NCBI GenBank assembly: GCA_021773835.1
Contig: JAJFJQ010000035.1
Location: 109,781 to 173,780 of the forward strand
Direction: 5' to 3'
Origin: Gammaproteobacteria bacterium
Lineage (GTDB): Bacteria > Pseudomonadota > Gammaproteobacteria > Ga0077536
DNA length: 64,000 nt
Positions 40,722-64,000 of this stretch are shown here, in pieces; position 1 is the first letter of the stretch; each line of letters opens with the position of its first letter. The notes under the pieces are model-generated. The model did not search any database. It saw nothing but the letters and a program-made list of their open reading frames with translations, and had not been told where the DNA came from. A program made the translations under genes and the position numbers.

Positions 40722-41150
40722 ATGAAGAAGGTTCAACAAGGTTTCACACTAATCGAGCTGATGATCGTGGTCGCGATCATCGGTATCTTGGCCGCGGTCG
40801 CGATTCCTGCTTACCAGGACTACACGATCCGTGCGAAAGTGACGGAAGGCTTAGGTCTCGCATCGGCAGGTAAGACCGCGGTATCAGAGTTCTTCGCAAC
40901 AAATGGTCGTCTACCGGGCAACAACACCTCAGCTGGTATGGCCCAACCAGGTAGTATTTCTGGTAACGACGTCCAAAGCGTTACAGTCAACGCGAACGGC
41001 ATTATGCATATCTTGTTTTCAGGTTCGCTTCCGTTGGGAACCAAGACGATCTTCCTTACGCCGGAGACAACTGGCGGTCGTGTGAAATGGGACTGCGCGA
41101 CTAACGGTACATTGGACAATCGGTATCGCCCATCCTCTTGCCGTAACTAA
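40722..41150 (+). CDS. pilA: Type IVa major pilin PilA
   Basis: 142 aa. Class III leader [34 protein letters not shown] (Gly-1, Phe+1, Glu+5). C-terminal disulfide loop [24 protein letters not shown] 9 nt upstream. Confidence 0.95.
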
Positions 41151-51128: not shown

Positions 51129-52001
51129 ATGACTACGGATACGACTGGGAATGCGTCTGTCCCTACCGTTAGTATCGGACTGCCGCTGTATAACGGGCAA
51201 AATTTCATTAAAGAAGCATTGGACTCGTTGCTGTCTCAATCATTTGAAGACTTTGAAATTATTGTCTCCGACAACGGCTCGACGGATTCATCCGTCGCTA
51301 TTGTTGAAAGCTACATTGCGAATGACCCGAGGATATCCCTGTATCAGCAGCAATGTAATATTGGCCCGGCGAAAAATTTCGAATTTGTATTAAACAAAGC
51401 GAATGGTGCCTTTTTTATGTGGGCAGCTCATGATGATGTATGGGATGTCAATTGGCTGCGGGTATTGTTGGATAGTCTAAGGGACGATGATATTGGTATC
51501 CGCGGGCTTATAAAGCTACAGCGTGGAGATGCGGTCATAGCGGAAAAGAAGGCCCCCGATTTAAGAAGACATCAGTTTATAAGCTGTTTTATGCGTAATG
51601 AAACAGACTATCGCAGTCATTATGCGTTTTGTCTTTTCCATCGCGAGAAACTATGTCGAGCAGACTTGAGCACCTTGTATATCGATTATTATCCTGATGC
51701 TTTATTCGTTTACGAATTGGTGAAGTATGGCAACCTTAGAACGACAGCAGACACCTATCAGAGATATCGTGTTCACGATCAGAATCTCGGCGCGGCATAT
51801 TCGAAGAAATGGAAGGGATTGCAAAAGATGCTCTACCGAGTTCACCCGTTGAGGTACTATCGTTATTATCTGCGATACACAGACGGTATCTTCAGAAATC
51901 TGATTATAATTTCCTTGATCCCGATAAAGCATATCTACGCTCAGGCTAGTTTCTGGTGTCGTGGTGCTCGCCAAATATTTTTCGGAAGAGAAATAATTTG
52001 A
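51129..52001 (+). CDS. Glycosyltransferase family 2
   Basis: 290 aa with an N-terminal GT-A fold (VSIGLPLYNGQNFIKEALDSLLSQSFEDFEIIVSDNGSTD) and a DxD-like region (AAHDDVWD). Confidence 0.75.
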   Translation: MTTDTTGNASVPTVSIGLPLYNGQNFIKEALDSLLSQSFEDFEIIVSDNGSTDSSVAIVESYIANDPRISLYQQQCNIGPAKNFEFVLNKANGAFFMWAAHDDVWDVNWLRVLLDSLRDDDIGIRGLIKLQRGDAVIAEKKAPDLRRHQFISCFMRNETDYRSHYAFCLFHREKLCRADLSTLYIDYYPDALFVYELVKYGNLRTTADTYQRYRVHDQNLGAAYSKKWKGLQKMLYRVHPLRYYRYYLRYTDGIFRNLIIISLIPIKHIYAQASFWCRGARQIFFGREII

Positions 52002-52207
52002 AAAGCCGCATTTTAAACGGCTCGAAATGTAATAGCCCGACGGCTCGGGTTGCACAACGTAGGGTTGACTGGAGTACGAAGTTTTTGAGAAACATTCGTA
52101 GACCGTGGCGCGCGTTGCTAATTGATAAAACGAGGACGAAAAAGCTACGCATACAGTGGATTTCTGGCATGAAGGTATGCTGCGCTCATGACGAGCCGAA
52201 AAAATAA

Positions 52208-53344
52208 ATGAAGGCGCCAATGATTAATATACTCACGGTCTTCGGCACTCGTCCGGAGACGATCAAGATGGCACCGCTAATTGCTGAGCTGGAAAGGCGT
52301 CCAAATTTCATTAAAAACCGCAACTGTCTCACCGGTCAGCATAAAGACATGGTTGCGCCACTTATCGATCTTTTTGGTATTCGAGTCGATCATAACCTCG
52401 ACTTAATGAGAGATAACCAGACGCTCGAACATATCACGGTCGCGGTACTACAAGAGATCTCCCATATCCTACGTGAGGAAGAATTCGATCTGCTATTGGT
52501 GCAGGGAGATACAACGACCTCTATGGCTGCTGCATTGGCGGCCTTTTATTCAGGGGTGAAAATTGGTCATGTGGAAGCGGGGTTACGCACATTTGATAAA
52601 TTTCATCCGTACCCGGAAGAGTCGAACAGAAAGATTATCGACTCGGTGTCGGACCTATTCTTTGCGCACACAGATGCGGCGAAACGGAATCTGGTCAAGG
52701 AAGGAATTGCAGAAGACCACGTTGCGGTTACCGGAAACACGGTGATCGACGCACTACTTGATATCTCAAATCGTCCTTTTAGTTTTTCCGGAACGGCGCT
52801 GGAATCCCTGCCATTCGACTCCAAACGAATAATTCTGGTCACTGCCCATCGTCGCGAAAGTTTCGGCGAGCCGTTTGAGTCCATGTGTCTTGGGTTGCGA
52901 CGACTTGCAGAGAAATATCGAGAGGAAATCGTTCTTGTATATCCGGTGCACCGAAACCCAAATGTCCGGAAGGTCGTGAATAGCATTTTGTCGGGCATTG
53001 ATAACGTGAATCTTATTGAACCATTGGATTACATGCCACTTGTTCACTTGATGAAGAATTCTTACATGGTGCTGACCGATTCAGGCGGACTGCAAGAAGA
53101 GGCTCCTAGCCTCGGTAAACCGGTTCTCGTACTGCGTAAGCTTACAGAGCGTCAGGAAGGAGTTGAGGCCGGAACAGTTAAAATAGTTGGAATGGATGCT
53201 GATGATATTGTCGCAGAGGCGTCTTTGCTACTCGATGATAAATCGACGTATAAGGCGATGACCGCAAAAATCAATCCGTACGGGGATGGAACAGCGAGCG
53301 TTCAGATTGTGAGTCGCATCCTCGATCAGTTCGGCCTGGACTAA
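52208..53344 (+). CDS. wecB: UDP-N-acetylglucosamine 2-epimerase (non-hydrolysing, WecB/MnaA-like)
   Basis: 378 aa (ILTVFGTRPETIKMAPLI, QGDTTTSMAAALAAFYSGVKIGHVEAGLRTFDKFHPYPEE, LTDSGGLQEEAPSLGKPVLVLR). Confidence 0.88.
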   Translation: MKAPMINILTVFGTRPETIKMAPLIAELERRPNFIKNRNCLTGQHKDMVAPLIDLFGIRVDHNLDLMRDNQTLEHITVAVLQEISHILREEEFDLLLVQGDTTTSMAAALAAFYSGVKIGHVEAGLRTFDKFHPYPEESNRKIIDSVSDLFFAHTDAAKRNLVKEGIAEDHVAVTGNTVIDALLDISNRPFSFSGTALESLPFDSKRIILVTAHRRESFGEPFESMCLGLRRLAEKYREEIVLVYPVHRNPNVRKVVNSILSGIDNVNLIEPLDYMPLVHLMKNSYMVLTDSGGLQEEAPSLGKPVLVLRKLTERQEGVEAGTVKIVGMDADDIVAEASLLLDDKSTYKAMTAKINPYGDGTASVQIVSRILDQFGLD

Positions 53345-53354
53345 GGAAGCAAAT

Positions 53355-54293
53355 ATGGGCATTGCTAAGCTTAAATCGCTGGTCAATTCTGTGCCGATGC
53401 TAAACGCCATAGCTCGATTCGTACATATGATCTATTCCATCAGCGTAAATAAATGCTTAAAAACCCTTACGTTTTCCCCTCCAGGTCACTTCTATTCACC
53501 GTTACCGAATTTGAAACATGTCGCGGAGAACGCCGGAAGTATATTTCACAAAGCGACGACACTCCCTGCTATCGAACTAAGATCAGTTCAGCAGCTGGAA
53601 TTATTAGAGAACTTTCGGCAATACGGTGCAGGTGATGCGCTTCACGAGCGGCAGTCTCCTTCGGTGAGATACTATTCAGATAACCCCTACTTTGGAGATG
53701 GAGATGCAGTAATCCTTTTCAGTTTATTGCGCCATTTCAAACCGAAACAGCTTATCGAAGTCGGCTCCGGATTTTCTTCCGCGCTAATTCTCGACATCAA
53801 TGACGAGTTCTTTGGTAACGAGATCGATTTGACGTTTATTGAACCGTTTAGTGAACGTCTACTCGGGTTATTGTCAGGCAACGATAAAGACAAGTGCCGC
53901 CTGATTGAAGAACCAGTTCAACAGGTTTCGATTGAGATTTTCAATGCGCTAGATAGTAACGACGTGCTATTCATCGATTCGTCGCACATCGTGAAGGTTG
54001 GAAGCGACGTAACGCACATTATTTTAAACATCCTACCCGCCTTGAAGCCCGGCGTTATCGTCCATTTTCATGATATCTTGTGGCCGTTCGAGTACCCAGA
54101 AGATTGGCTTATGCAAGGTATTTCATGGAATGAGGCCTACTTCCTACGTGCGTTCCTGGAATATAACCAAGCGTTCGAGATTCTTTACTTTAATTCGTAC
54201 ATCGCGGAATGCTTTCCAGATCAACTCACCAATTGTTTTTCTAAACCGCTGAAAAATACTGGCGGGAGCATTTGGTTACGCAAAATTTCATGA
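53355..54293 (+). CDS. Class I SAM-dependent methyltransferase-like protein (Methyltransf_24-like)
   Basis: 312 aa with a glycine-rich SAM motif (LIEVGSGFSS) and DxxFIDxxH-type blocks (VLFIDSSH, HFHDI), as in sugar O-methyltransferases of this fold. Assigned by motif only. Confidence 0.5.
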   Translation: MGIAKLKSLVNSVPMLNAIARFVHMIYSISVNKCLKTLTFSPPGHFYSPLPNLKHVAENAGSIFHKATTLPAIELRSVQQLELLENFRQYGAGDALHERQSPSVRYYSDNPYFGDGDAVILFSLLRHFKPKQLIEVGSGFSSALILDINDEFFGNEIDLTFIEPFSERLLGLLSGNDKDKCRLIEEPVQQVSIEIFNALDSNDVLFIDSSHIVKVGSDVTHIILNILPALKPGVIVHFHDILWPFEYPEDWLMQGISWNEAYFLRAFLEYNQAFEILYFNSYIAECFPDQLTNCFSKPLKNTGGSIWLRKIS

Positions 54294-54404
54294 TGCCTGA
54301 GTTCGAATTCGCGATATCGCCAAGGTCGTTATTAATCCAGCCAATTTGTATACGCCCTATCGAAGCCGGGTTGTCGAATCATTATTTTTTCACGAGCTGC
54401 ACAA

Positions 54405-55901
54405 CTAAAATCGTATTTCTGAGAGCTTATTTCTACCCAAGGGGGTGCTTAGCATCGCTATAAAGCCTGCGATAATGGCGGCGATGAAAATTACGAGGAA
54501 ATTTTGAATTTGTTCCGCGTAATCTGGCTGACCAACGTACCATCTAATTGCAAGGCATGGGACAACAACAGAAACGACCGGCAAAATAAACGCATGTAAA
54601 TACCATCGCATCTTTTCCTGTGACAAAAATTTCCGATGCATCAGTGGAACGCCGACGAGTATGTATATTGTGTTTAGTAGTACCCAAACGTACGCAGCAC
54701 CAATCATCCCAAAACTTGTCACACCCCAATACATTAGTGGGATCAGGATGACGACGAGTGCGGAATTCAACATGATTGTTAATCGAGTATGGCCGTAGGA
54801 AAGCTGTAAAACATACGGCAGTCCCATTAACCCATTTAGTACGGTACCTATTGCATATACTGTCAGAACGCTCGCACTAGCTATCGCGGTTGTTTCGTCT
54901 TGCGTCCACAGCATCAATAGCTCGGCTGCGTAAATTGAAATGATCGCTCCGGATGATACGAGAATGATGGCTAGTAGCTGGGCTAACTTGTGGTAGGTTT
55001 GCGCTAACAGCTCTATCTCGTTTTTCGCAATTAATTCCGTCATTTTCGGATACGCTCCGTTTATCGTCGGGGCGCTGAGAGAAGTCAGTGCGCCGCAAAC
55101 GGAAGTCGCAAGCGTATAGAACCCTAAATATTGCAACGGGAGCAAAAGGGAAATAAATACCTTATCTGCCTGCACTAATACCGTTGCTAAAATATTTACG
55201 CTGAACACGCCAAACGCGAAATTCCATACGCGTTTTAATATCTGAATATCAAAATAGATCCGTTCGTTTGATTTCGGGATCAACAGGTAGGTTTTATATC
55301 TGACTACAATTAATTCGGCGACCGCGGTAACCGCTTGAAATGCGAAGAATGCTTCGATCGTGGGTGACACAAGAATGATAAATGGAATGACCCCAAGGCC
55401 ACGTACGGTTGCGAAAAACACGATGCACTTATTGAGCCACACCTGTTCTTGTAGGCCCATGATCGCGCCCCGATACAAGGTCATAAACCATCGGGTGGCG
55501 ATAATAAACCCCATGATTACGATCGCTGTTTCTACTGATGATATGGATAGCTTCTCCACTTTTAGCCATGAGCCGGCAAGTGGGGCTGCGAACACGAGTG
55601 TTCCGCAAATGATAATTCCAACGATGACGATGTAGATCGATTCGAGCGTGCGAAGCAGGCGCCGTACTGACACGTTGTCGTAATCGCCAGCTCTATACTT
55701 CGCCATTTCTCTATTGATGGTAGGGGTCATGCCCATGTCCAACAATGCTATCCATGCTTGCATGGTGACGTACACGCCAATTAGGCCATAGGCTTCGATT
55801 CCGAGATATCTAATATAGACGGGTACAAACGCGATACCCATCAATATTGTCCATGTGCCTCCTATGTAATTTGCGATGACATTTTGTTTGAGGGTGGGCA
55901 T
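54405..55901 (-). CDS. wzx: Oligosaccharide flippase Wzx (MOP/PST family)
   Basis: 498 aa with about 12-14 TM helices. The N-terminus (NVIANYIGGTWTILMGIAFVPVYIRYLGIEAYGLIGV) is typical of Wzx/RfbX. Confidence 0.8.
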   Translation of the reverse strand: MPTLKQNVIANYIGGTWTILMGIAFVPVYIRYLGIEAYGLIGVYVTMQAWIALLDMGMTPTINREMAKYRAGDYDNVSVRRLLRTLESIYIVIVGIIICGTLVFAAPLAGSWLKVEKLSISSVETAIVIMGFIIATRWFMTLYRGAIMGLQEQVWLNKCIVFFATVRGLGVIPFIILVSPTIEAFFAFQAVTAVAELIVVRYKTYLLIPKSNERIYFDIQILKRVWNFAFGVFSVNILATVLVQADKVFISLLLPLQYLGFYTLATSVCGALTSLSAPTINGAYPKMTELIAKNEIELLAQTYHKLAQLLAIILVSSGAIISIYAAELLMLWTQDETTAIASASVLTVYAIGTVLNGLMGLPYVLQLSYGHTRLTIMLNSALVVILIPLMYWGVTSFGMIGAAYVWVLLNTIYILVGVPLMHRKFLSQEKMRWYLHAFILPVVSVVVPCLAIRWYVGQPDYAEQIQNFLVIFIAAIIAGFIAMLSTPLGRNKLSEIRF

Positions 55902-55908
55902 CTAAATG

Positions 55909-56715
55909 TTAAACGCGCTTGAGATACCCGGACGGCGCGGTTGTCAGCAGCAGCTTGTCTTCAATGTGGTTTGCTATTTGGAGTTTCAGAATGTTCCCGT
56001 CACTCGCTAAGGTTGCGCCGTCATCTAAGGTTTTTAGGTATTGAATTACGGCTGTCTTCGCATTGTTTCCGACTCCCCATGGGCGATCGTCGAAAAATGA
56101 ATCCGACAGATCCTCGATCAACGTGTCGAAAACGATGCAATAACTCCCTGAGCTGACGAGGGGTGCGTAAGCCTCCAACTCCCCGAGTACGTGGTCGTGC
56201 GTGTGATTCGAATCGAGCATTACGAGGACAGTGTTGAACGGTTTCGACAGTTCCTGAACCTTCGCCACAGTGTCAGGGCTAATCGAAGAACCCTCAATCA
56301 GGTCAATTCGACTAAACATGGGGTGTCTTTCTATCTCGCGTCGATTATGAGACCGAATATCGATGTCTATCGCGAGCACTTTACGTTTAGGCTGATTAGG
56401 ATCCAAGGATTCGCCCGCCGCAACCGCGTCACTGTAGTCTAGGAGCGCTAGCATCGAGGCCGTAAAAATGACTGAGCCCCCATGTGCAATACCGGTTTCG
56501 ATTACCAGATCAGGTTTGACCGTCCAAATTAATTCTTGGACAGCCACAATATCCTGAGGGTACTGAATTATGGGGCGCCCTAACCAATCAAAATTGTATG
56601 AGTACCGCGCGGTAACTGATTCATCGAGAAATGCCGCCGCGGCTGCTTGCAGGCTCGCACTCGATCGATAGGTCGAAATTGACGCGTTGCGTTCGTCGTT
56701 AAAATTTTCAGCCAT
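55909..56715 (-). CDS. CmcI/cephalosporin-hydroxylase-family methyltransferase (sugar O-methyltransferase type)
   Basis: 268 aa with the conserved core VIETGIAHGGSVIF and an acidic pocket LVMLDSNHTHDHV, as in CmcI / rhamnosyl O-methyltransferases. Confidence 0.65.
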   Translation of the reverse strand: MAENFNDERNASISTYRSSASLQAAAAAFLDESVTARYSYNFDWLGRPIIQYPQDIVAVQELIWTVKPDLVIETGIAHGGSVIFTASMLALLDYSDAVAAGESLDPNQPKRKVLAIDIDIRSHNRREIERHPMFSRIDLIEGSSISPDTVAKVQELSKPFNTVLVMLDSNHTHDHVLGELEAYAPLVSSGSYCIVFDTLIEDLSDSFFDDRPWGVGNNAKTAVIQYLKTLDDGATLASDGNILKLQIANHIEDKLLLTTAPSGYLKRV

Positions 56716-57245
56716 GCTGTTTCCTCGAAATTTAAATTAGCGGTCCTGCGTAGATAGCCGTTGTACTACCGCAGTAATTACGCACGTCGGCTCGGTACCA
56801 CAGAAGGCGATTACTGCCTTACATTGAGACATCTAATACTGAGAAGACTATACTTAATCAGTACTTTATAGGCGAAATCTAAGATTTTACAAGCGCAATA
56901 AACTGATGTTTCTCACAATGGGATCGGATCTGCGCTTTGTATGCTTGAAATAAGCGACGGGTCGCGCAGGTCCCGGGCATAGCTACTGCAAGCCTGGCTT
57001 CGGCTGCGGTATAAGTTCGATGCGGTTTCGGTTTTCTGCAGTGAGACGCGAATCTATGATTGTTTTCCGTAGCCCACTCGAGTGGAGATCGGAAACATCA
57101 CATTAATTCTTGCTAGTGAAGTCGTGTGTGGTAATTGAAGGAAGACCCGAAGCGGAAGTGTAACGATGAATATTCAAAAACTGCGGCCCCACAGACACCC
57201 AAGGGGCAGAAACGAGTACCGACATGCGGCAGTTATTTCTGAGGT

Positions 57246-58364
57246 GTGGAGCCAATGAAAGAGCGAATACATTACACCAAACCTTCCGTAACTGACCGTG
57301 AAGTGGACTTTGCAAGTGACGCGGCAAGAAATGGTTGGGGGGAAAAGTGTTATGAGTACATTGGTCGCTTTGAGGAAATGTTCAAGCAATACACGGGGGC
57401 AAAATACGCTATATCGACCTCCAGTTGCACTGGCGCATTGCATCTGGGAATGGCGGCTTTGGGGATCGGGCCTGGCGATGAGGTAATCCTTGCTGACACC
57501 AATTGGATAGCTACGGCCGCACCCATTACATATCTTGGCGCCAAACCAGTCCTTGTTGATATTCTGCCTGATAGTTGGTGCATCGATCCTGACAAGATTG
57601 AAGCCGCTATTACACCGAATACTAAAGGGATAATAGCGGTCCACCTGTATGGCAATCTGTGTGAGATGGATCGCCTACTCGATATCGGTGAAAAGTATGG
57701 ACTGCCGATAATTGAAGATTCGGCTGAAGCCCTCGGTTCATTCTGGAATCAGAAACATACCGGCACTATGGGTAGGTTCGGTACTTTTTCTTTTCATGGC
57801 ACCAAGGCCATTACAACCGGCGAAGGTGGCATGTTCATTACTAACGACGAAGATCTCTACGACACTGTTTCGGTTTTAAGCAATCACGGACGCTCGAGTT
57901 CCCAAACGAAACAATTTTGGCCCGATATGATCGGATTTAAATACAAACTATCCAACATACAGGCTGCAATCGGATGTGCTCAGATGGAGCGGATTGAAGA
58001 ATTAATTACTCGTAAACGAGAGATTTTTGCCTATTACCATCAGCACTTAGGTGGAATCGATGGTATCCATATGAACCCCGAGCAAGAAGGGAATAAAAAT
58101 AGTTATTGGATGCCAACTGTGGTATTCGATAAGGCGCTGGGCATTTCCCGGGAAGCGGCGATGGATGCCTTCAGTAAGGAAAACATTGATGCGAGGGTAT
58201 TTTTTTGGCCATTGAGTGCGCTAGATATGTTCGAAGACGTTCTGCAGAACACTAACGCCTGGGATATACCGGCGCGCGCGATCAACCTTCCGAGCTATCA
58301 TGATCTTTCGATTGCCCAGCTGGACAGGGTATCCAGTGTCATACAAGACGGATTATTAAGATGA
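57246..58364 (+). CDS. DegT/DnrJ/EryC1/StrS-family PLP-dependent sugar aminotransferase
   Basis: 372 aa with a GTG start (alternative ATG at 57255). The PLP-lysine region FSFHGTKAITTGEGG is diagnostic. Confidence 0.85.
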   Translation: MEPMKERIHYTKPSVTDREVDFASDAARNGWGEKCYEYIGRFEEMFKQYTGAKYAISTSSCTGALHLGMAALGIGPGDEVILADTNWIATAAPITYLGAKPVLVDILPDSWCIDPDKIEAAITPNTKGIIAVHLYGNLCEMDRLLDIGEKYGLPIIEDSAEALGSFWNQKHTGTMGRFGTFSFHGTKAITTGEGGMFITNDEDLYDTVSVLSNHGRSSSQTKQFWPDMIGFKYKLSNIQAAIGCAQMERIEELITRKREIFAYYHQHLGGIDGIHMNPEQEGNKNSYWMPTVVFDKALGISREAAMDAFSKENIDARVFFWPLSALDMFEDVLQNTNAWDIPARAINLPSYHDLSIAQLDRVSSVIQDGLLR

Positions 58365-59002
58365 AACCCGTAGTCGTATGGGGGGGCACCGGACAACTCG
58401 TTGTTATTGACGAATTTATTAAAGATTTAGGATATGAAATAAAGGCAGTTATCGATAACGACTCGTCTGTTAAAGCGCAGATCGAAGGTGCGCAGACTTA
58501 TCATCAGGAGGAAGGGCTAAATCGATTTCTGTCAAGTTACCAAGGCGAGGCCTTGGGGTTTATCGTGGCTATCGGTGGTGATAAAGGGAAGGACCGTTTT
58601 GAAATATCCACTCTGCTCCAAAGTTATAATTTGTACCCCGTCAAGATCGTACACCCCCGGGCGTATATAGCTCGAAGTGCTAAAGTTGGCGAGGGATGCC
58701 AAGTCATGGCCAACGCAACCCTTGGAGCAAGAGCCGTTCTAGGTCGTTATTCACTGCTGAACACCGGCTGCGTGGTCGACCATGAATGTCAATTAGGTAT
58801 CGGTGTCCATATTGGGCCTGGCGCGTCTCTCGCTGGTTCGGTCGAAGTGGGTGATTACTCGTTTATCGGAACGGGTGCGGTTGTACTGCCGAAACTCCAT
58901 ATCGGACGGAACAGTATTGTCGGTGCCGGCAGCGTTGTGACCAGAAACGTCCCACACAATACGGTTTGCTATGGAAACCCGGCTCGAGTGAGGCAAAAAT
59001 GA
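58361..59002 (+). CDS. Sugar N-acetyltransferase, NeuD/PglD-type (left-handed beta-helix)
   Basis: 213 aa. The N-terminal Rossmann-like part (VVVWGGTGQLVVIDEF) is followed by hexapeptide repeats. Overlaps the aminotransferase stop (ATGA). Confidence 0.75.
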   Translation: MKPVVVWGGTGQLVVIDEFIKDLGYEIKAVIDNDSSVKAQIEGAQTYHQEEGLNRFLSSYQGEALGFIVAIGGDKGKDRFEISTLLQSYNLYPVKIVHPRAYIARSAKVGEGCQVMANATLGARAVLGRYSLLNTGCVVDHECQLGIGVHIGPGASLAGSVEVGDYSFIGTGAVVLPKLHIGRNSIVGAGSVVTRNVPHNTVCYGNPARVRQK

Positions 59003-59310
59003 TCATATTGAACGATTGAGATTGCGCGCTACTAACAACGCACGCGTGGCACGTTATTTTGGGCATATTAAATTCATGAAACAGCGCTTCGAACTCGTCA
59101 ACCTGCCCGCGCCAGGGAGGTGAAGTTGCAATCGACCGTCGGAAGTTCTCATGACAAGCGATGATGAGATCTTACCGCTGTTGAGTAAGGCCACATCGAC
59201 CTTATGATCGTGCTCCAATGCACCTTGGTCATGCTTCGGAGACATTGATAGAATGTGCGCTGCTGGATTCTCTTGCTCTTTCCTGTCGTCGAATTATCAA
59301 GGTACTAAAT

Positions 59311-60099
59311 ATGTCGAAGCGTGAAATTTCGAAGGGTCCCAAGAGCGAGCGTAAGGGAAGCGTTTATCCCCACGACGAAGACATATCCGATCGGCTTGAT
59401 GTCATAGTCAAGGAATTCGAAAGGCCAATACAAGATGTCCTGGAATCTTTTCCCGTTTACGCGAGACGGATACATCTGACGAGATTCCTCGCGCATTACG
59501 AACTCTATAAGCAAGTTGCGGACTTACCCGGATCCATATTCGAGTGTGGTGTTTACCGCGGTAGTGGACTATTTACCTGGGCTAAGTTGTTGGAAATATT
59601 CCATCCAGGAGATCGTCTGCGAAAAGTGATTGGATTTGATAACTTCGAAGGTTTTGTTTCTTTCCACTCGAAGGACGGAGCAGAGCAGCAGGACCGTGCA
59701 AAAACGATCGGGGGGTGGAACGCGGGCGACTATTATCCGGAACTTTTAAAGCACATTGATATATTCCACGAGGATAGCTTTCTACCTCGCGCTACGAGAA
59801 TTGAGCTCGTCGCCGGCGATCTTGCACAAAGCGCATCCAAGTATGTATCCGAAAATCCCGGAACTCGAATATCGTTGTTACATCTTGATGTTGATCTGTA
59901 CGAACCAACTATAGCGGCTCTTAAGGCATTTTATCCGCTAGTCGTCGAAGGCGGACTTATCGTACTTGACGAATACGGTATTAAGGACTGGCCAGGGGCA
60001 AGTCAGGCCGTCGAAGAATACTTTTCGGATCAAATGCCCCGAATACAAAAGCTCCCGTACTGTTCGTCTCCTGGAGGCTACATCGTGAAGGGCAGTTAA
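59311..60099 (+). CDS. TylF/MycF-family (macrocin-type) O-methyltransferase
   Basis: ORF 59218..60099. ATG at 59311 (MSKREIS...). Motifs IFECGVYRGSG, GFDNFEGF and LHLDVDLYEPT match the TylF family. Confidence 0.7.
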   Translation: MSKREISKGPKSERKGSVYPHDEDISDRLDVIVKEFERPIQDVLESFPVYARRIHLTRFLAHYELYKQVADLPGSIFECGVYRGSGLFTWAKLLEIFHPGDRLRKVIGFDNFEGFVSFHSKDGAEQQDRAKTIGGWNAGDYYPELLKHIDIFHEDSFLPRATRIELVAGDLAQSASKYVSENPGTRISLLHLDVDLYEPTIAALKAFYPLVVEGGLIVLDEYGIKDWPGASQAVEEYFSDQMPRIQKLPYCSSPGGYIVKGS

Positions 60100-60267
60100 A
60101 CACCAACGAAAAAAGTCAATCGTCTTGCGTAGGTTGAAATAGCAAGAAAACTATAGCAAAGCCGGCGTTAGATGCCATGCGCTGGGGGCCGGCTGCCCTG
60201 GCACCCGGCATTCGTCTTCGTCCCAGTTTCTAATGCAACACTAGCCCTATCACAAGGTGTCGCTGCG

Positions 60268-61593
60268 TTAGCGCTTAGCAGTCGTGGCGTTCTTGGCGCT
60301 TCTTGGTAGTTTAAGAAAACACAACATCACATGAACGTCTGGATAGTAGATATTGGGTTCTCGAAAGAAATCGATGTGACATCCAATTTCGGCGTTATTC
60401 CAGTGAGCGTCACCCTGAAGAATGCGCTTAAGCAGACGCGGATCCATTTCGCACCGCAGGTAAGGAGGCGTGTAGGTCGGGCTATCCCCTACCAATCGCC
60501 CTTCGGGCTTTGAAAAGGAAAATTCATAGGTGTCCTGTTGAAATGAGAGATAGATGTTGTAGTCCAACGTCCAGTTATTCTTTGTTTGAATGTCCCACAA
60601 TTGCGAACGCGCGAGCGGGAGGTTTGTCCGCAAAAATGTGGTGCACTCGCTCATGGGATCCGATTCGAAGGGGTACGGTATATCCAATAGGTTTTGTTCG
60701 ACGTATTCGTTTTGACCCGCCCAATCGGGTTGTACATACGCTCCGTTCGTGATCGATTTAGATTCGAAATCGAACACTTGACCTTCGCTCATGACCAGCG
60801 TCTTTTGCTTAGGTAGCTTGTTGGCGACGTACTCGGCGGCGCGATCCCAACTACAGGTTCCCAAACATTGATTCTTTTTCGCCTGACCACCTGCGAGAAC
60901 GAACGAACCAGCAAATGGCATCAGAAATTCCGGTGCTAATATCTCAGTCAATTCGGTGAGATATTCGAGGTTTCGATTTCGAATGCGGTCGGCTTCCTTC
61001 AGGCGATCGATTTCTGAAAAGTTCATGAAGCAGGTCGGAAACGGACTGGCCGCGTTATATTTCACGAGCGCCAATGTGAATCCTCCGTGCCGGTCTCGCA
61101 GACGACGGGCGCCATCCAGTGACGGGTTATTGTCATTCCCGTTGAAAAGAGAGCGCTTTCCCGCTTCAACAACCACTGAGCTATCGATGATATTGCCGAT
61201 CTCCGCCCGATGGAAAATGTCAGGCGCAAAAGGACCATACATGGTCAGTTCTAGTGGGCCGACTTTTTTCGTTTCTGAATCTTTAATCGGTACCAAGTTA
61301 GTGAAGCCGAGTGTATTTAGGAGTCTATGGAGAAAGTTTGCGCCGTGATCCAATACGATAATTGGAACATCTTTAGGGAAGGGGATTAGACTTGCAGGAT
61401 CGTAGTGATCTGGGTGAAGGTGGCTGATGTAAATTGCATCGACGCCAACCAAGTCCTCGGGTTTTGTCTTAATAGGAGGGTAGTGATACCACGACCCTTC
61501 AAACGCGCCGTCGGTGAGCCACGGGTCGGTTAGAATTCTATACCTGTCATACTCGATGATCGAGCAAGCGTTGTCGATGAACTGAAATTTCAA
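60268..61593 (-). CDS. MBL-fold (metallo-beta-lactamase superfamily) protein with uncharacterised C-terminal domain
   Basis: 441 aa. The N-terminal about 180 aa carry the HxHxDH motif (ISHLHPDHYD). The C-terminal about 250 aa have no motif I recognise. Confidence 0.55.
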   Translation of the reverse strand: MKFQFIDNACSIIEYDRYRILTDPWLTDGAFEGSWYHYPPIKTKPEDLVGVDAIYISHLHPDHYDPASLIPFPKDVPIIVLDHGANFLHRLLNTLGFTNLVPIKDSETKKVGPLELTMYGPFAPDIFHRAEIGNIIDSSVVVEAGKRSLFNGNDNNPSLDGARRLRDRHGGFTLALVKYNAASPFPTCFMNFSEIDRLKEADRIRNRNLEYLTELTEILAPEFLMPFAGSFVLAGGQAKKNQCLGTCSWDRAAEYVANKLPKQKTLVMSEGQVFDFESKSITNGAYVQPDWAGQNEYVEQNLLDIPYPFESDPMSECTTFLRTNLPLARSQLWDIQTKNNWTLDYNIYLSFQQDTYEFSFSKPEGRLVGDSPTYTPPYLRCEMDPRLLKRILQGDAHWNNAEIGCHIDFFREPNIYYPDVHVMLCFLKLPRSAKNATTAKR

Positions 61594-61675
61594 GCCCCCT
61601 CCCTCAACCAGTTTACAAGGTCCGCCCGGTCGTATCGTAGCCTACACCCGCGAGTAACAGAATTTCCATTAATGA

Positions 61676-62929
61676 CTAGAACACGCGGATTTCAGGGATC
61701 GCGGTTACAAATTTCGAATCCCACTCACGAATATAAGCGCAGCGTTGTTGGATTTCGTCAACGATATTCCATGGAAAAACTAGTAGATAATCTGGCTTCA
61801 ATTCCTCAATGACGGACGGCGGGGAAATAAAGATGTGATTGCCAGGTAAATACATGCCTTGTTTTGATGGCGCAGCGTCACAAATCGTTGATATCAAATC
61901 GGCCTTTACGCCAGCGAAGTTGAGTAATGTATTTCCTTTTGCCGCGGCGCCGTATCCTACGATGGTTTTGTTGGCCCGTTTTGCGTCCAACAGGAACTGT
62001 AGAAACTCAAATTTTATCGTGTCCACTCGTGATTGAAACCCAGTATAGGCGTCGATTGATTGAAGTCCACAACGCCGTTCTGTTTCGATAATTCGCCCAA
62101 TAGCAGGGGTTTCCACATGTGAAGCATCGGGTAAACAGCCGTAGATGCGTAAACTGCCGCCATGGGTGGCTAGTTCATCGACGTCGAATATCCGTAATCC
62201 GGCATTGGCAAAAATCAATTGAACGCTTGTTAAGCTGAGGTAAGAAAAATGCTCGTGATAAACGGTGTCAAATTGCATCCCGTCTATGAGCTTTAGCAAG
62301 TGTGGAAACTCTAATGTCACCACCCCATTTTCATTGAGGGTGGTTGCGATACCTTTGGCGAAATCTAATATGTCTGGTACATGCGCGAATACGTTGTTGC
62401 CGATCAACAGATCCGCGCCGCCTCGTGATTGAGCAAGTCCGCGCGCGAATTCCTCGCCAAAGAACTCTGTAATCGTTTCGACACCGAGCTTTCGCGCAGC
62501 TGCGGCCGTCGATTCAGTTGGCTCGATGCCGAGGCACGGTATACCTAGGTCGATAAAATTCCTTAGCAAGTATCCGTCGTTACTCGCAACCTCGATAACG
62601 TGATTGGACGAACTCAACTGAAGACGATCTACGATCATTCGGGAATAATCTCCAGCGTGTTTTAGCCAGCCAGACGATACCGACGAAAAGTACGCGTAAT
62701 CCGCGCTAAAGAGCTCGTTCGCCCGTGCGAAATCCTGAGTCTGAACTAACCAGCAGCCCTCGCATACATACAGCCTTAAAGGATAGTACAGTTCCGGTTC
62801 GTCGAGGGCCTGTACAGACAGATATGCGTTCGACGGTGGTGCGAACCCGAGATCTAGAAATTTTACAGTCAGTTGTTTTGAGCAATGCCGACATTGCGGT
62901 TGCAGTCCTTGTATGGACTCCGCCGTCAT
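61676..62929 (-). CDS. NDP-hexose C-methyltransferase-type enzyme (TylC3/NovU-like; zinc-binding N-terminus + class I MTase + C-terminal domain)
   Basis: 417 aa. Two N-terminal Cys pairs (CRHC..., CEGC...) then a class I fold (VIEVASNDG). This is the architecture of the sugar C-3 methyltransferases of deoxysugar pathways. Confidence 0.65.
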   Translation of the reverse strand: MTAESIQGLQPQCRHCSKQLTVKFLDLGFAPPSNAYLSVQALDEPELYYPLRLYVCEGCWLVQTQDFARANELFSADYAYFSSVSSGWLKHAGDYSRMIVDRLQLSSSNHVIEVASNDGYLLRNFIDLGIPCLGIEPTESTAAAARKLGVETITEFFGEEFARGLAQSRGGADLLIGNNVFAHVPDILDFAKGIATTLNENGVVTLEFPHLLKLIDGMQFDTVYHEHFSYLSLTSVQLIFANAGLRIFDVDELATHGGSLRIYGCLPDASHVETPAIGRIIETERRCGLQSIDAYTGFQSRVDTIKFEFLQFLLDAKRANKTIVGYGAAAKGNTLLNFAGVKADLISTICDAAPSKQGMYLPGNHIFISPPSVIEELKPDYLLVFPWNIVDEIQQRCAYIREWDSKFVTAIPEIRVF

Positions 62930-63477
62930 AAGGAAATTCCAGCAAAGTCCGCTTTGATTAGTGGATGAGATCGGTCGCGCTCAGACACGTTGGAAATTTC
63001 GATTGGCCATTCTATCGCTACACTCGGATCGTTATAGCGTACGCCACCTTCCGCGCCGGGATCGTAGTGGGCGGAATGTAAATATAGTAGTTCAGAATTA
63101 GGTTCTAAGGATTGAAATCCGTGGGCAAACCCTTGCGGAATTATCAATGCTAAATTGTCATCGGCCGATAATCGCTCCCCGTGCCAACGTAGCATACTGT
63201 TCGAATTAGAGCGAAGGTCTAGGGCAACGTCGAACACCGCGCCTCTAATACATCTTACAATTTTAATTTCTGAAGACGGGGGGTATTGGAAATGCAAGCC
63301 CCGAATGCTGCCAGGCGTTGTTGTCATCGAATGGTTAATTTGAACAATCGTCTTCCCATCTAGAACTTCCTGAAGCTCGCGGTCGCAAAATAGTCTATAG
63401 AAGCTACCCCGTTCATCAGAGATATAGTCCATTTCAAGTATTTGTAAATCCTGAATCGATGTAGTCTGAAAGTCCAT
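62926..63477 (-). CDS. RmlC-like cupin, NDP-4-keto-6-deoxyhexose 3,5-epimerase family
   Basis: 183 aa with an IRGLHFQ signature and overall dTDP-4-dehydrorhamnose-3,5-epimerase family blocks. Confidence 0.75.
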   Translation of the reverse strand: MDFQTTSIQDLQILEMDYISDERGSFYRLFCDRELQEVLDGKTIVQINHSMTTTPGSIRGLHFQYPPSSEIKIVRCIRGAVFDVALDLRSNSNSMLRWHGERLSADDNLALIIPQGFAHGFQSLEPNSELLYLHSAHYDPGAEGGVRYNDPSVAIEWPIEISNVSERDRSHPLIKADFAGISL

Positions 63478-64000
63478 TCAACCAGCGTACTCTCGTATTT
63501 GATCGCGACACAACAATTGCGCATTACTTCCACCGCGCTCATTCCCGTACCAGTCGCTGACTTTTTGAATTGTTTCGTCAATGTGCCATTTGGGATTCCA
63601 GCCGAGAAGCTTTTTTGCGTCGCTGCTATCGAGTTTCAGAATTGTAGCTTCGTGTACCCCAGGCTCAGGATTAACCGTCAATGTGCTTGATGTGCCGGAC
63701 AGATCCACTATGCGCTCGGCAACCCATTCTACAGTCCTAACGTCACGCTCATCTGGCCCGAAATTCCAGCTCCTATCGAATCCTTTTTTTCCCTGCCCCA
63801 AGTGCTCTGCCAACAATAGATACCCGGCAAGTGACTCAAGTACGTGTTGCCATGGACGTACTGAACTTGGGTTTCGAAGAACGATGTCTTCGCCTCGTTC
63901 AATCGCTCTCATCAAATCGGGAAGTAGACGGTTAGGAGACCAGTCACCCCCTCCAACCACGTTGCCTGCACGTGCAGTCGCTATTAGTGTATTTTTTCTC
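63478..64000 (-). CDS. CDP-glucose 4,6-dehydratase-like SDR (C-terminal part; 5' end beyond window)
   Basis: The C-terminal 160 aa include SVRPWQHVLESLAGYLLL, characteristic of CDP-glucose 4,6-dehydratase (DdhB/RfbG). No stop separates the reading frame from the window edge. Confidence 0.65.
   Translation of the reverse strand, partial: RKNTLIATARAGNVVGGGDWSPNRLLPDLMRAIERGEDIVLRNPSSVRPWQHVLESLAGYLLLAEHLGQGKKGFDRSWNFGPDERDVRTVEWVAERIVDLSGTSSTLTVNPEPGVHEATILKLDSSDAKKLLGWNPKWHIDETIQKVSDWYGNERGGSNAQLLCRDQIREYAG

Follow-up and report, generated by a model that had tools for sequence, protein, structure and literature searches.

We asked which product is encoded by a sugar locus in which four genes for S-adenosylmethionine (SAM) methyltransferases stand close together, and which acceptor would receive that product. 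The locus occupies the right end of a 64,000-nucleotide stretch of DNA (the window) from a gammaproteobacterium of the GTDB lineage Ga0077536 (GenBank assembly GCA_021773835.1, contig JAJFJQ010000035.1), and the methyltransferase genes lie between positions 53355 and 62929. Four of ten consecutive genes in this interval encode SAM methyltransferases, compared to none of the ~27 annotated genes in the first 40 kb, a clustering that exceeds chance. The interval sits inside a low-GC island: the GC content falls from ~0.51–0.56 to 0.455–0.49 at ~46 kb and stays there through the window end, and between ~46 and 64 kb all genes were annotated by Pfam and NCBIfam as glycan biosynthesis or membrane proteins. 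The drop fits horizontal exchange of a glycan island (window 44000–64000); the island is truncated at 64000 inside a dehydratase gene. We lean, at a little over even confidence, towards the reading that this island, located after the pilin gene pilA, holds one CDP-sugar pathway together with the assembly and export half of a glycan system, with the pilin as the favoured acceptor. The four methyltransferase genes are as follows; here and below, Pfam calls were judged by the gathering score and NCBIfam calls by the cut-off of each model.

53355..54293, plus strand: Methyltransf_24-family class I SAM methyltransferase with a cation-dependent O-methyltransferase fold (PF13578, full model, 39 bits; cut-off 26.3)
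55909..56715, minus strand: CmcI-family methyltransferase (PF04989 RMNT_CmcI, 283 bits)
59311..60099, plus strand, open reading frame open from 59218: TylF-family, CalS11-like O-methyltransferase (PF05711, 55.4 bits; cut-off 23)
61676..62929, minus strand: nucleoside diphosphate (NDP)-hexose C-methyltransferase of the TylC3/TcaB9/MtmC type (PF08421, PF13489 and PF08484)

All four genes had been typed correctly in an initial annotation made from the sequence alone; the open reading frames are present, and in a hidden Markov model check each passes its Pfam gathering score. SAM motif I and metal-binding or catalytic residues were detected in all four proteins, including the Methyltransf_24-family protein, whose assignment had been considered doubtful. 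In this protein the motifs E-x-G-S-G, D-S-S-H and H-D comprise E135/G137/S138/G139, D208/S209/S210/H211 and H239/D240, which are invariant in the alignment (the first set across 22 sequences). NCBIfam and PDB sequence searches with it were empty, and its AlphaFold2 (AF2) model (pLDDT 84) matched Mg-dependent class I O-methyltransferases and CmcI in Foldseek with a probability of 1.0. The gene is the last of an operon that runs GT4–GT2–wecB–methyltransferase.

For the CmcI-like protein, a single-sequence PDB search gave no match; a profile built from it and five relatives matched the CmcI structure 2bm8 at 4e-9, and E73...G79-G80-S81, D168-S-N-H171 and D197 are invariant in alignment with its relatives. 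It reached 75 bits on the mycobacterial rhamnosyl O-methyltransferase equivalog NF045824, under the 400-bit cut-off; it shares a superfamily with that protein but is a different enzyme. CmcI (the cephamycin 7-O-methyltransferase) and the rhamnosyl O-methyltransferase also belong to PF04989, and in the match to the CmcI structure the E-x-G-x-x-x-G-G-S and D-x-x-H motifs are aligned. The gene described here differs in being a constant member of a CDP-sugar cassette, alongside genes for a C-methyltransferase and an aminotransferase.

The TylF-like protein matches CalS11, a TDP-rhamnose 3'-O-methyltransferase, at 1.8e-35, and its motif I (E109-x-G-x-x-x-G), D224-x-D226 and D251-E252 line up with CalS11. 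TylF, MycF and NovP have PF05711 in common with it, but only CalS11 is close, the matches to MycF and NovP being far weaker (~1e-5 to 1e-6). A start at 59311 appears better than one at 59218, because AAGG precedes it and the resulting length equals that of CalS11. The 59218 start has no ribosome-binding site, and a non-coding gap of ~300 bp (59002–59311) separates the preceding acetyltransferase gene from the CalS11-like start.

The C-methyltransferase shows the complete TylC3/TcaB9 architecture, with 78.9 bits on PF08421 (cut-off 31.3), 50.9 bits on PF13489 and 186 bits on PF08484, and aligns over its full length with MtmC (3.8e-73), KijD1 and TcaB9 (1e-73 to 1e-63). The zinc cysteines C13/C16/C56/C59 line up with those of MtmC, motif I reads E113-V-A-S-N-D-G119, and Y224-H-E226-H227 lines up with the Y-H-E-H of MtmC; the catalytic cluster of TcaB9 we take to be Y222, E224 and H225. 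Its closest match among species representatives is ~50% identical. TylC3/EryBIII, TcaB9, KijD1 and MtmC of actinomycete antibiotic pathways contain the same four-cysteine zinc, class I SAM and Methyltransf_14 domains, but their partner is a dTDP-glucose dehydratase; in the window the partner is a CDP-glucose dehydratase, and the setting is a proteobacterial surface-glycan locus.

The initial annotation had called the four families unrelated. They are indeed distinct, without pairwise sequence similarity in an all-versus-all BLASTP comparison or in hhalign comparisons of the Methyltransf_24 profile with the other three proteins, and recent paralogy was ruled out on these grounds. The word "unrelated" is nevertheless an overstatement, because class I of the SAM enzymes takes in all four, and the broad model PF13578 detects three of them above its threshold; the common fold is supported by the structure match and by this model.

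The methyltransferase genes are interspersed with genes for the synthesis and modification of an NDP-sugar:

57246..58364, plus strand: DegT-family C4 aminotransferase, perosamine-synthase-like (PF01041, 403 bits)
58361..59002, plus strand: NeuD/PglB/VioB-family N-acetyltransferase, PerB-like (TIGR03570, 180 bits; cut-off 160.8)
60268..61593, minus strand: metallo-β-lactamase (MBL)-fold protein, 441 aa, with the metal motif H58-x-H-x-D-H63 (PF12706 and PF13483)
62926..63477, minus strand: RmlC-type NDP-4-keto-6-deoxyhexose epimerase (TIGR01221, 158 bits)
63478..64000, minus strand: CDP-glucose 4,6-dehydratase, C-terminal part only (TIGR02622, 169 bits on 160 aa)

The pairing of a CDP-sugar dehydratase with an RmlC-like epimerase, already named in the initial annotation, is borne out by these scores; on the dTDP-type model the dehydratase fragment reached only 23 bits. 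The RmlC-like protein matches RmlC (1dzr) at 4e-37 and NovW at 2e-26, and its gene shares 4 bp with the start of the C-methyltransferase gene. The cut dehydratase gene, the epimerase, the C-methyltransferase and the MBL-fold protein follow one another in a minus-strand operon. The aminotransferase, acetyltransferase and CalS11-like methyltransferase genes form a plus-strand operon, from which the CmcI-like gene and wzx diverge. In PDB searches the aminotransferase was closest to GDP-perosamine synthase (4e-77) and the acetyltransferase to the perosamine N-acetyltransferase PerB (3e-34). Relatives of the Per and PerB type act at C4 of an NDP-4-keto-6-deoxyhexose, and the sole visible source of such a substrate is the CDP-glucose dehydratase; Pfam and NCBIfam annotation of the visible locus revealed neither a second sugar dehydratase nor a 4-ketoreductase.

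From this gene content we infer the following order of steps and their regiochemistry. The CDP-glucose 4,6-dehydratase would form CDP-4-keto-6-deoxyglucose, which the RmlC-type enzyme would epimerise into the L-series, a configuration predicted because of that epimerase. The TcaB9/TylC3-type enzyme would then introduce a C-methyl branch beside the 4-keto group, the perosamine-synthase-like aminotransferase would aminate C4, and the PerB-like enzyme would N-acetylate the C4 amine. The product would be a CDP-4-acetamido-4,6-dideoxy-C-methyl-L-hexose. The branch is most likely at C3, since all solved relatives of the C-methyltransferase are 3-C-methyltransferases; a C5 branch of the NovW/NovU kind is possible, with the RmlC/NovW-like gene directly upstream. 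The substrate is expected to keep its 2- and 3-hydroxyls, because no genes for a 2,3- or 3-dehydratase were found. The CmcI-like and CalS11/TylF-like enzymes would O-methylate the remaining hydroxyls, with at least one methyl group coming from the CmcI-like enzyme. A methylated, C-branched 6-deoxyhexose derivative, as predicted initially, is thus a sound expectation.

The initial annotation had also read the aminotransferase and acetyltransferase genes as evidence for a second, acetamido sugar. According to this explanation the locus makes a C-branched methylated 6-deoxyhexose, completed by a reductase, and a separate acetamido sugar. It agrees with the strand arrangement, in which the aminotransferase–acetyltransferase–TylF operon runs apart from the minus-strand dehydratase–rmlC–C-methyltransferase–MBL operon, and with the LegC and PseC models that gave the aminotransferase its top NCBIfam scores, both under cut-off; a reductase gene could lie past 64000. 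The window, however, encodes no UDP-N-acetylhexosamine dehydratase of the PglF, PseB or LegB type, and the closest structures, Per and PerB, handle 4-keto-6-deoxyhexoses. The Caulobacter crescentus Per/PerB pair, which comprises the best solved relatives, makes a 4-acetamido-4,6-dideoxyhexose; in contrast to that system, the carrier here is predicted to be CDP, the scaffold would be epimerised and C-methylated, and there is no GDP-mannose dehydratase.

Comparison with other loci (designated L001 to L025) carries the decisive weight in this question. Counterparts of the aminotransferase, 62–65% identical, are contiguous with the C-methyltransferase in two of them: in L024, rmlC and the C-methyltransferase gene are followed directly by an aminotransferase gene (65%), and L025 carries the dehydratase, rmlC, C-methyltransferase, aminotransferase (62%), a PhyH-type dioxygenase, a methyltransferase, WbqC and CmcI. 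Acetyltransferase, CmcI-like, MBL-fold, C-methyltransferase and aminotransferase genes occur together in L016 and L018. The metagenome contigs L016/L017 encode, in this order, the MBL-fold protein, a methyltransferase, an NTP-transferase, the dehydratase, C-methyltransferase, acetyltransferase, CmcI, aminotransferase and a GT2 protein, whereas in L018 (GCA_030429585.1) the acetyltransferase, MBL and CmcI genes are consecutive and the C-methyltransferase, NTP-transferase, aminotransferase (44% identity) and dehydratase genes are nearby. Because of the Per/PerB-like relatives and this co-occurrence, a single sugar is the better reading, and we consider two separate sugars quite improbable.

Overall, genes for the dehydratase, C-methyltransferase, aminotransferase and CmcI-like protein, with or without the acetyltransferase, MBL and RmlC genes, were found together in at least four unrelated genomic backgrounds. 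These include five loci from metagenome-assembled genomes (MAGs) of Eremiobacterota (L002–L006), which carry, in this order, CmcI, aminotransferase–C-methyltransferase, rmlC and dehydratase genes, and in addition encode an NTP-transferase and a GT2 fusion. Genes of the NTP-transferase type are found alongside the cassette in L006, L016, L018 and L025. Counterparts of the CmcI-like protein with 45–60% identity adjoin the C-methyltransferase in other loci, and all C-methyltransferase relatives of at least ~40% identity that had enough flanking sequence and a CmcI-like neighbour also have a DegT aminotransferase nearby. Two of these loci contain further genes. In L025 (12393–15626) a PhyH-type dioxygenase, a Methyltransf_23 protein and a WbqC-like protein lie between the aminotransferase and CmcI, with the dioxygenase filling the slot of the MBL gene. 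In L018 (7965–12657) the cassette is joined by genes for a sulfotransferase and an APS kinase, pointing to a sulfated variant of the same sugar. Since the cassette is spread over distant phyla, working out its biochemistry once would allow many genomes to be annotated.

The MBL-fold protein may contribute a further modification. It could be an oxygenase, perhaps a hydroxylase of the NamH/CMAH type, that adds an oxygen to the sugar, with the hydroxylation product then being O-methylated; we regard this as a lead. The 150 best representatives of the family stand alone, at ~420–450 aa and lacking any N-terminal extension; members of the family showed no Rieske domain, and many homologues carry the JGI label "UDP-MurNAc hydroxylase". 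PDB matches were weak (SaxA and CmlA), CmlA, the sole oxygenase-like solved relative, appearing only at E ~0.06. The MBL gene travels with the acetyltransferase and CmcI-like genes in L016 and L018. More broadly, the family co-occurs with sugar N-acetyltransferases and methyltransferases (L016, L018 and L019), and in a Caulobacteraceae MAG a homologue stands beside a methyltransferase gene inside a locus with flagellin, NeuB, DegT, FlaF and FlbT genes.

The closest described sugar is N-acylkansosamine, which is 4,6-dideoxy-2-O-methyl-3-C-methyl-4-acylamino-L-manno-hexose. It combines the 6-deoxy, L-series, C-methyl, 4-acylamino and O-methyl features predicted for the window. The setting differs, in that N-acylkansosamine comes from an actinobacterium, its carrier is a glycolipid, and its N-acyl group is 2-methoxypropionyl. 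To our knowledge, the kansosamine biosynthetic genes have not been defined, and we know of no biosynthetic route for such a sugar; if the proposed pathway is correct, the locus would define how a branched, methylated amino sugar of the kansosamine kind is encoded. N-acylkansosamine, a sugar of the lipooligosaccharides of Mycobacterium kansasii, is named in PMC4403928. Among Gram-negative bacteria, the C-methyl sugar virenose occurs in the lipopolysaccharide (LPS) of Coxiella (PMC3539893), and 3-C-methylrhamnose occurs in the LPS of Burkholderia andropogonis and Azorhizobium caulinodans (PMC7203242). Virenose and 3-C-methylrhamnose resemble the predicted product as branched 6-deoxyhexoses that are made through a TylC3-type C-methyltransferase and placed in surface glycans, but they are neutral and lack a 4-amino group; a dTDP- or GDP-based synthesis has been proposed for them, and tailoring by several methyltransferases is not described. 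The enzyme families in the window are all known already, as are C-methyl sugars in proteobacterial LPS.

The sugar genes continue to the left into a putative set for assembly and export (48.4–55.9 kb), which also includes the Methyltransf_24 gene; the list starts with the gene that precedes this set:

45359..48301, plus strand: fused polytopic membrane/spermidine-synthase-like protein, 980 aa (NF037959, 79.5 bits, cut-off 40; PF01564, 67 bits)
48365..49453, minus strand: divergent WecB-like (Epimerase_2) protein (PF02350, 159 bits; TIGR00236, 178 bits, under the cut-off of 210)
50012..51106, plus strand: GT4-family glycosyltransferase (PF13692 and PF00534)
51129..52001, plus strand: GT2-family glycosyltransferase (PF00535, 90 bits)
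52208..53344, plus strand: UDP-GlcNAc 2-epimerase WecB (TIGR00236, 448 bits; cut-off 210)
54405..55901, minus strand: Wzx-type (MOP) flippase with ~12 transmembrane (TM) segments (PF01943, 58.8 bits)

The two WecB-type epimerases, the GT4 and GT2 glycosyltransferases, the Methyltransf_24 protein and Wzx would together build a short ManNAc- or GlcNAc-containing oligosaccharide on a lipid carrier, with the O-methylation taking place on the cytoplasmic side before Wzx flips the product across the membrane. The GT2 protein has no TM segments by hydropathy and is therefore unlike GtrB or ArnC. The divergent WecB-like protein has 30% identity to the true WecB (52208–53344) and 65% to its L020 counterpart.

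A homologous block is present in the metagenomic locus L020/L021, where the identities are 65% for the WecB-like protein, 64% for the Methyltransf_24 protein, 46% for WecB, 50% for GT4, 52% for GT2, 34% for the TylF-type protein, 40% for Wzx and 60% for CmcI; a fourth, different methyltransferase and a dehydratase are also encoded. Because of this shared block, a glycan with four methyltransferases represents a conserved design and not an accident of this genome. The initial annotation had considered such a glycan unusual for a proteobacterial surface. This holds insofar as C-methyl sugars are rare; however, they are on record for the LPS of the bacteria named above, and L020/L021 carries the homologous four-methyltransferase block.

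The same block bears on whether at least one of the methyltransferases could act on the pilin, the lipid carrier or a small molecule and be found in the locus by co-regulation only. The Methyltransf_24 protein, which has no characterised close relative, and the nearby spermidine-synthase-like membrane protein would fit such a reading. In L020/L021, however, the Methyltransf_24, TylF-like and CmcI-like genes again accompany the glycosyltransferase, WecB and Wzx genes known from the window, and for three of the four methyltransferases the nearest characterised relatives act on sugars or belong to the rhamnosyl O-methyltransferase/CmcI family. We consider a non-sugar substrate very improbable.

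As to the acceptor, the genes that precede the island point to the pilin:

40722..41150, plus strand, downstream of pilS/pilR: type IVa major pilin PilA, candidate glycan acceptor (PF00114, 81 bits; N_methyl, 40 bits)
41298..43283, plus strand: TfpW-like membrane protein 1, 661 aa, with ~11–12 TM segments and a C-terminal tetratricopeptide repeat (TPR) domain (by hydropathy and AF2, pLDDT 88.6)
43285..45252, plus strand: TfpW-like membrane protein 2, 655 aa, paralogous to protein 1 (46% identity by BLASTP), likewise with ~11–12 TM segments and a C-terminal TPR domain

This context had been overlooked in the initial annotation, as had the MBL-fold gene within the pathway operon. The first TfpW-like gene starts 148 bp after pilA. 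A DD motif follows TM1 in both proteins (D40-D41-Y in protein 1, D36-D37-Y in protein 2), D40 and D41 being invariant in 25 homologues, and the TPR Pfam matches lie at residues 568–622. The same membrane topology is known from TfpW, which acts on pilin as an arabinosyltransferase/oligosaccharyltransferase in group IV strains of P. aeruginosa. TfpW comprises 646 aa with 11 TM helices and a TPR domain, and its DDX motif is essential; tfpW lies immediately downstream of pilA, and its donor genes are unlinked to pilA (bioRxiv 10.1101/2020.04.19.049825). The proteins of the window resemble TfpW of Pa5196 and PA7 in their position after pilA, their length of ~650 aa, the ~11 TM segments, the C-terminal periplasmic TPR and the DD of the first periplasmic loop. 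They differ in that there are two paralogues instead of one, that no tfpX is present, that a Wzx-containing oligosaccharide locus takes the place of unlinked D-arabinofuranose genes, and that only Y-X6-P of the TfpW proline motif Y-X6-P-F-X7-P is conserved (invariant as Y291-X6-P298, with F and the second P missing). JGI names some of the homologues "protein O-mannosyl-transferase". In a Pfam scan of the 25 homologues only TPR families and weak DUF6056/DUF6057 matches were found, and a PDB profile search with the TfpW-like protein returned only TPR proteins.

In three other lineages (L011/L012, L013/L014 and L015), homologues of the TfpW-like proteins also directly follow a pilin gene; homologues in this position have 66%, 50% and 36% identity. 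In L013/L014 and in Janthinobacterium sp. 17J80-10 (L015) the pilin and TfpW-like genes are followed by a glycosyltransferase set that is different in each and contains Wzx. Because the island starts right after pilA and the two TfpW-like genes, and because this arrangement recurs, the pilin is the favoured target of a putative O-glycosylation. The region after the pilin gene appears to be a hotspot of glycan-gene turnover. In the closest relative (L011/L012, 17175–21803), whose pilin is 91.5% identical to PilA of the window, glycosyltransferase fragments and IS66 replace the glycan locus after the conserved genes. Both L011 and L013 retain the two TfpW-like paralogues together, suggesting that the two differ in activity or acceptor site.

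The strongest competitor to pilin glycosylation is an ordinary O-antigen or exopolysaccharide cluster that merely lies near the pilin genes, with the TfpW-like proteins using polyprenyl-phosphate monosaccharides made elsewhere, as TfpW does. GT-C enzymes classically use polyprenyl-phosphate monosaccharides as donors, Wzx, GT4, GT2 and WecB are typical O-unit genes, the donor genes of TfpW itself are unlinked to pilA, and the homologous block in L020/L021 abuts a dxs-like gene instead of pilA. Other observations speak against an O-antigen cluster: the visible 16 kb lack Wzy, Wzz, WaaL and an ABC transporter, annotation from 45 kb up to the cut at 64000 revealed no priming transferase either, non-homologous Wzx-containing glycan loci follow pilA and the TfpW-like genes in L013/L014 and L015 (with glycosyltransferase remnants in L011/L012), and the glycan block of L013 consists of only five genes with housekeeping genes on both sides. 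We regard an O-antigen or exopolysaccharide cluster as unlikely, though it retains an appreciable share of our expectation; in that case the locus would be an unusual yet unsurprising serotype cluster.

Several observations weigh against glycosylation of the pilin with the product of one CDP-sugar pathway. The window stops in the middle of the dehydratase gene, and the cytidylyltransferase, any reductase and a priming phosphoglycosyltransferase would lie beyond view. The likeness to TfpW was drawn from the published description, and the fold comparison gives weak support for a GT-C enzyme: the best structural match of the membrane domain is Pmt4 (Foldseek E 8e-3, TM score 0.35–0.44), and an hhalign comparison with E. 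coli ArnT gave no signal. For the MBL-fold protein, the possible oxygenase role is derived from a database name and the gene neighbourhood. The aminotransferases of the Eremiobacterota loci and L016 are only ~30% identical to that of the window, and the L020/L021 block, on its visible side, lies next to the dxs-like gene and not to pilA.

If pilin glycosylation by the product of this island is correct, TfpW-type modification would no longer be a peculiarity of Pseudomonas but a widespread system whose glycans are interchangeable, which would be of relevance for phage resistance and the surface recognition of pili. In the searchable literature we found no description of this CDP-sugar cassette or its product. 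It is possible that the cassette constitutes an undescribed route, in which a CDP-3-C-methyl-4-acylamino-4,6-dideoxyhexose is hydroxylated at its acyl group or on the ring by a metallo-oxygenase and O-methylated by the CmcI-like enzyme, the two acting as a CmcJ/CmcI-like couple, before the two TfpW-like proteins transfer the Wzx-flipped oligosaccharide en bloc to the pilin; the TfpW family would then represent general en-bloc pilin oligosaccharyltransferases. Taken as a whole, this scheme is tentative, and we hold it to be doubtful.

Exact-protein look-ups of the locus proteins gave only two short Logan contigs (L001 and L010), and an exact 41-mer scan of metagenome contigs for an extension past 64000 found nothing. 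Promoter and terminator scans of the window gave signals at or under the shuffle expectation, and an Rfam scan of the window gave no match. The 980-aa fusion protein at the locus edge, between the TfpW-like pair and the sugar genes, is a fifth protein with an AdoMet fold; it is split into proteins of 393 and 584 aa in L011 and is absent from L013 and L015. The window is a chromosomal piece from an uncultured proteobacterium, and the 90% cluster of its PilB includes a MAG protein labelled Gammaproteobacteria. The first 40 kb of the window consist of housekeeping genes, namely mraY to ftsA, secA, argJ, mutT, zapD, coaE, pilD, pilC, pilB, clpB, gdh, rluD, bamD, nadE, sucDC, a GDSL lipase gene, pilS and pilR.

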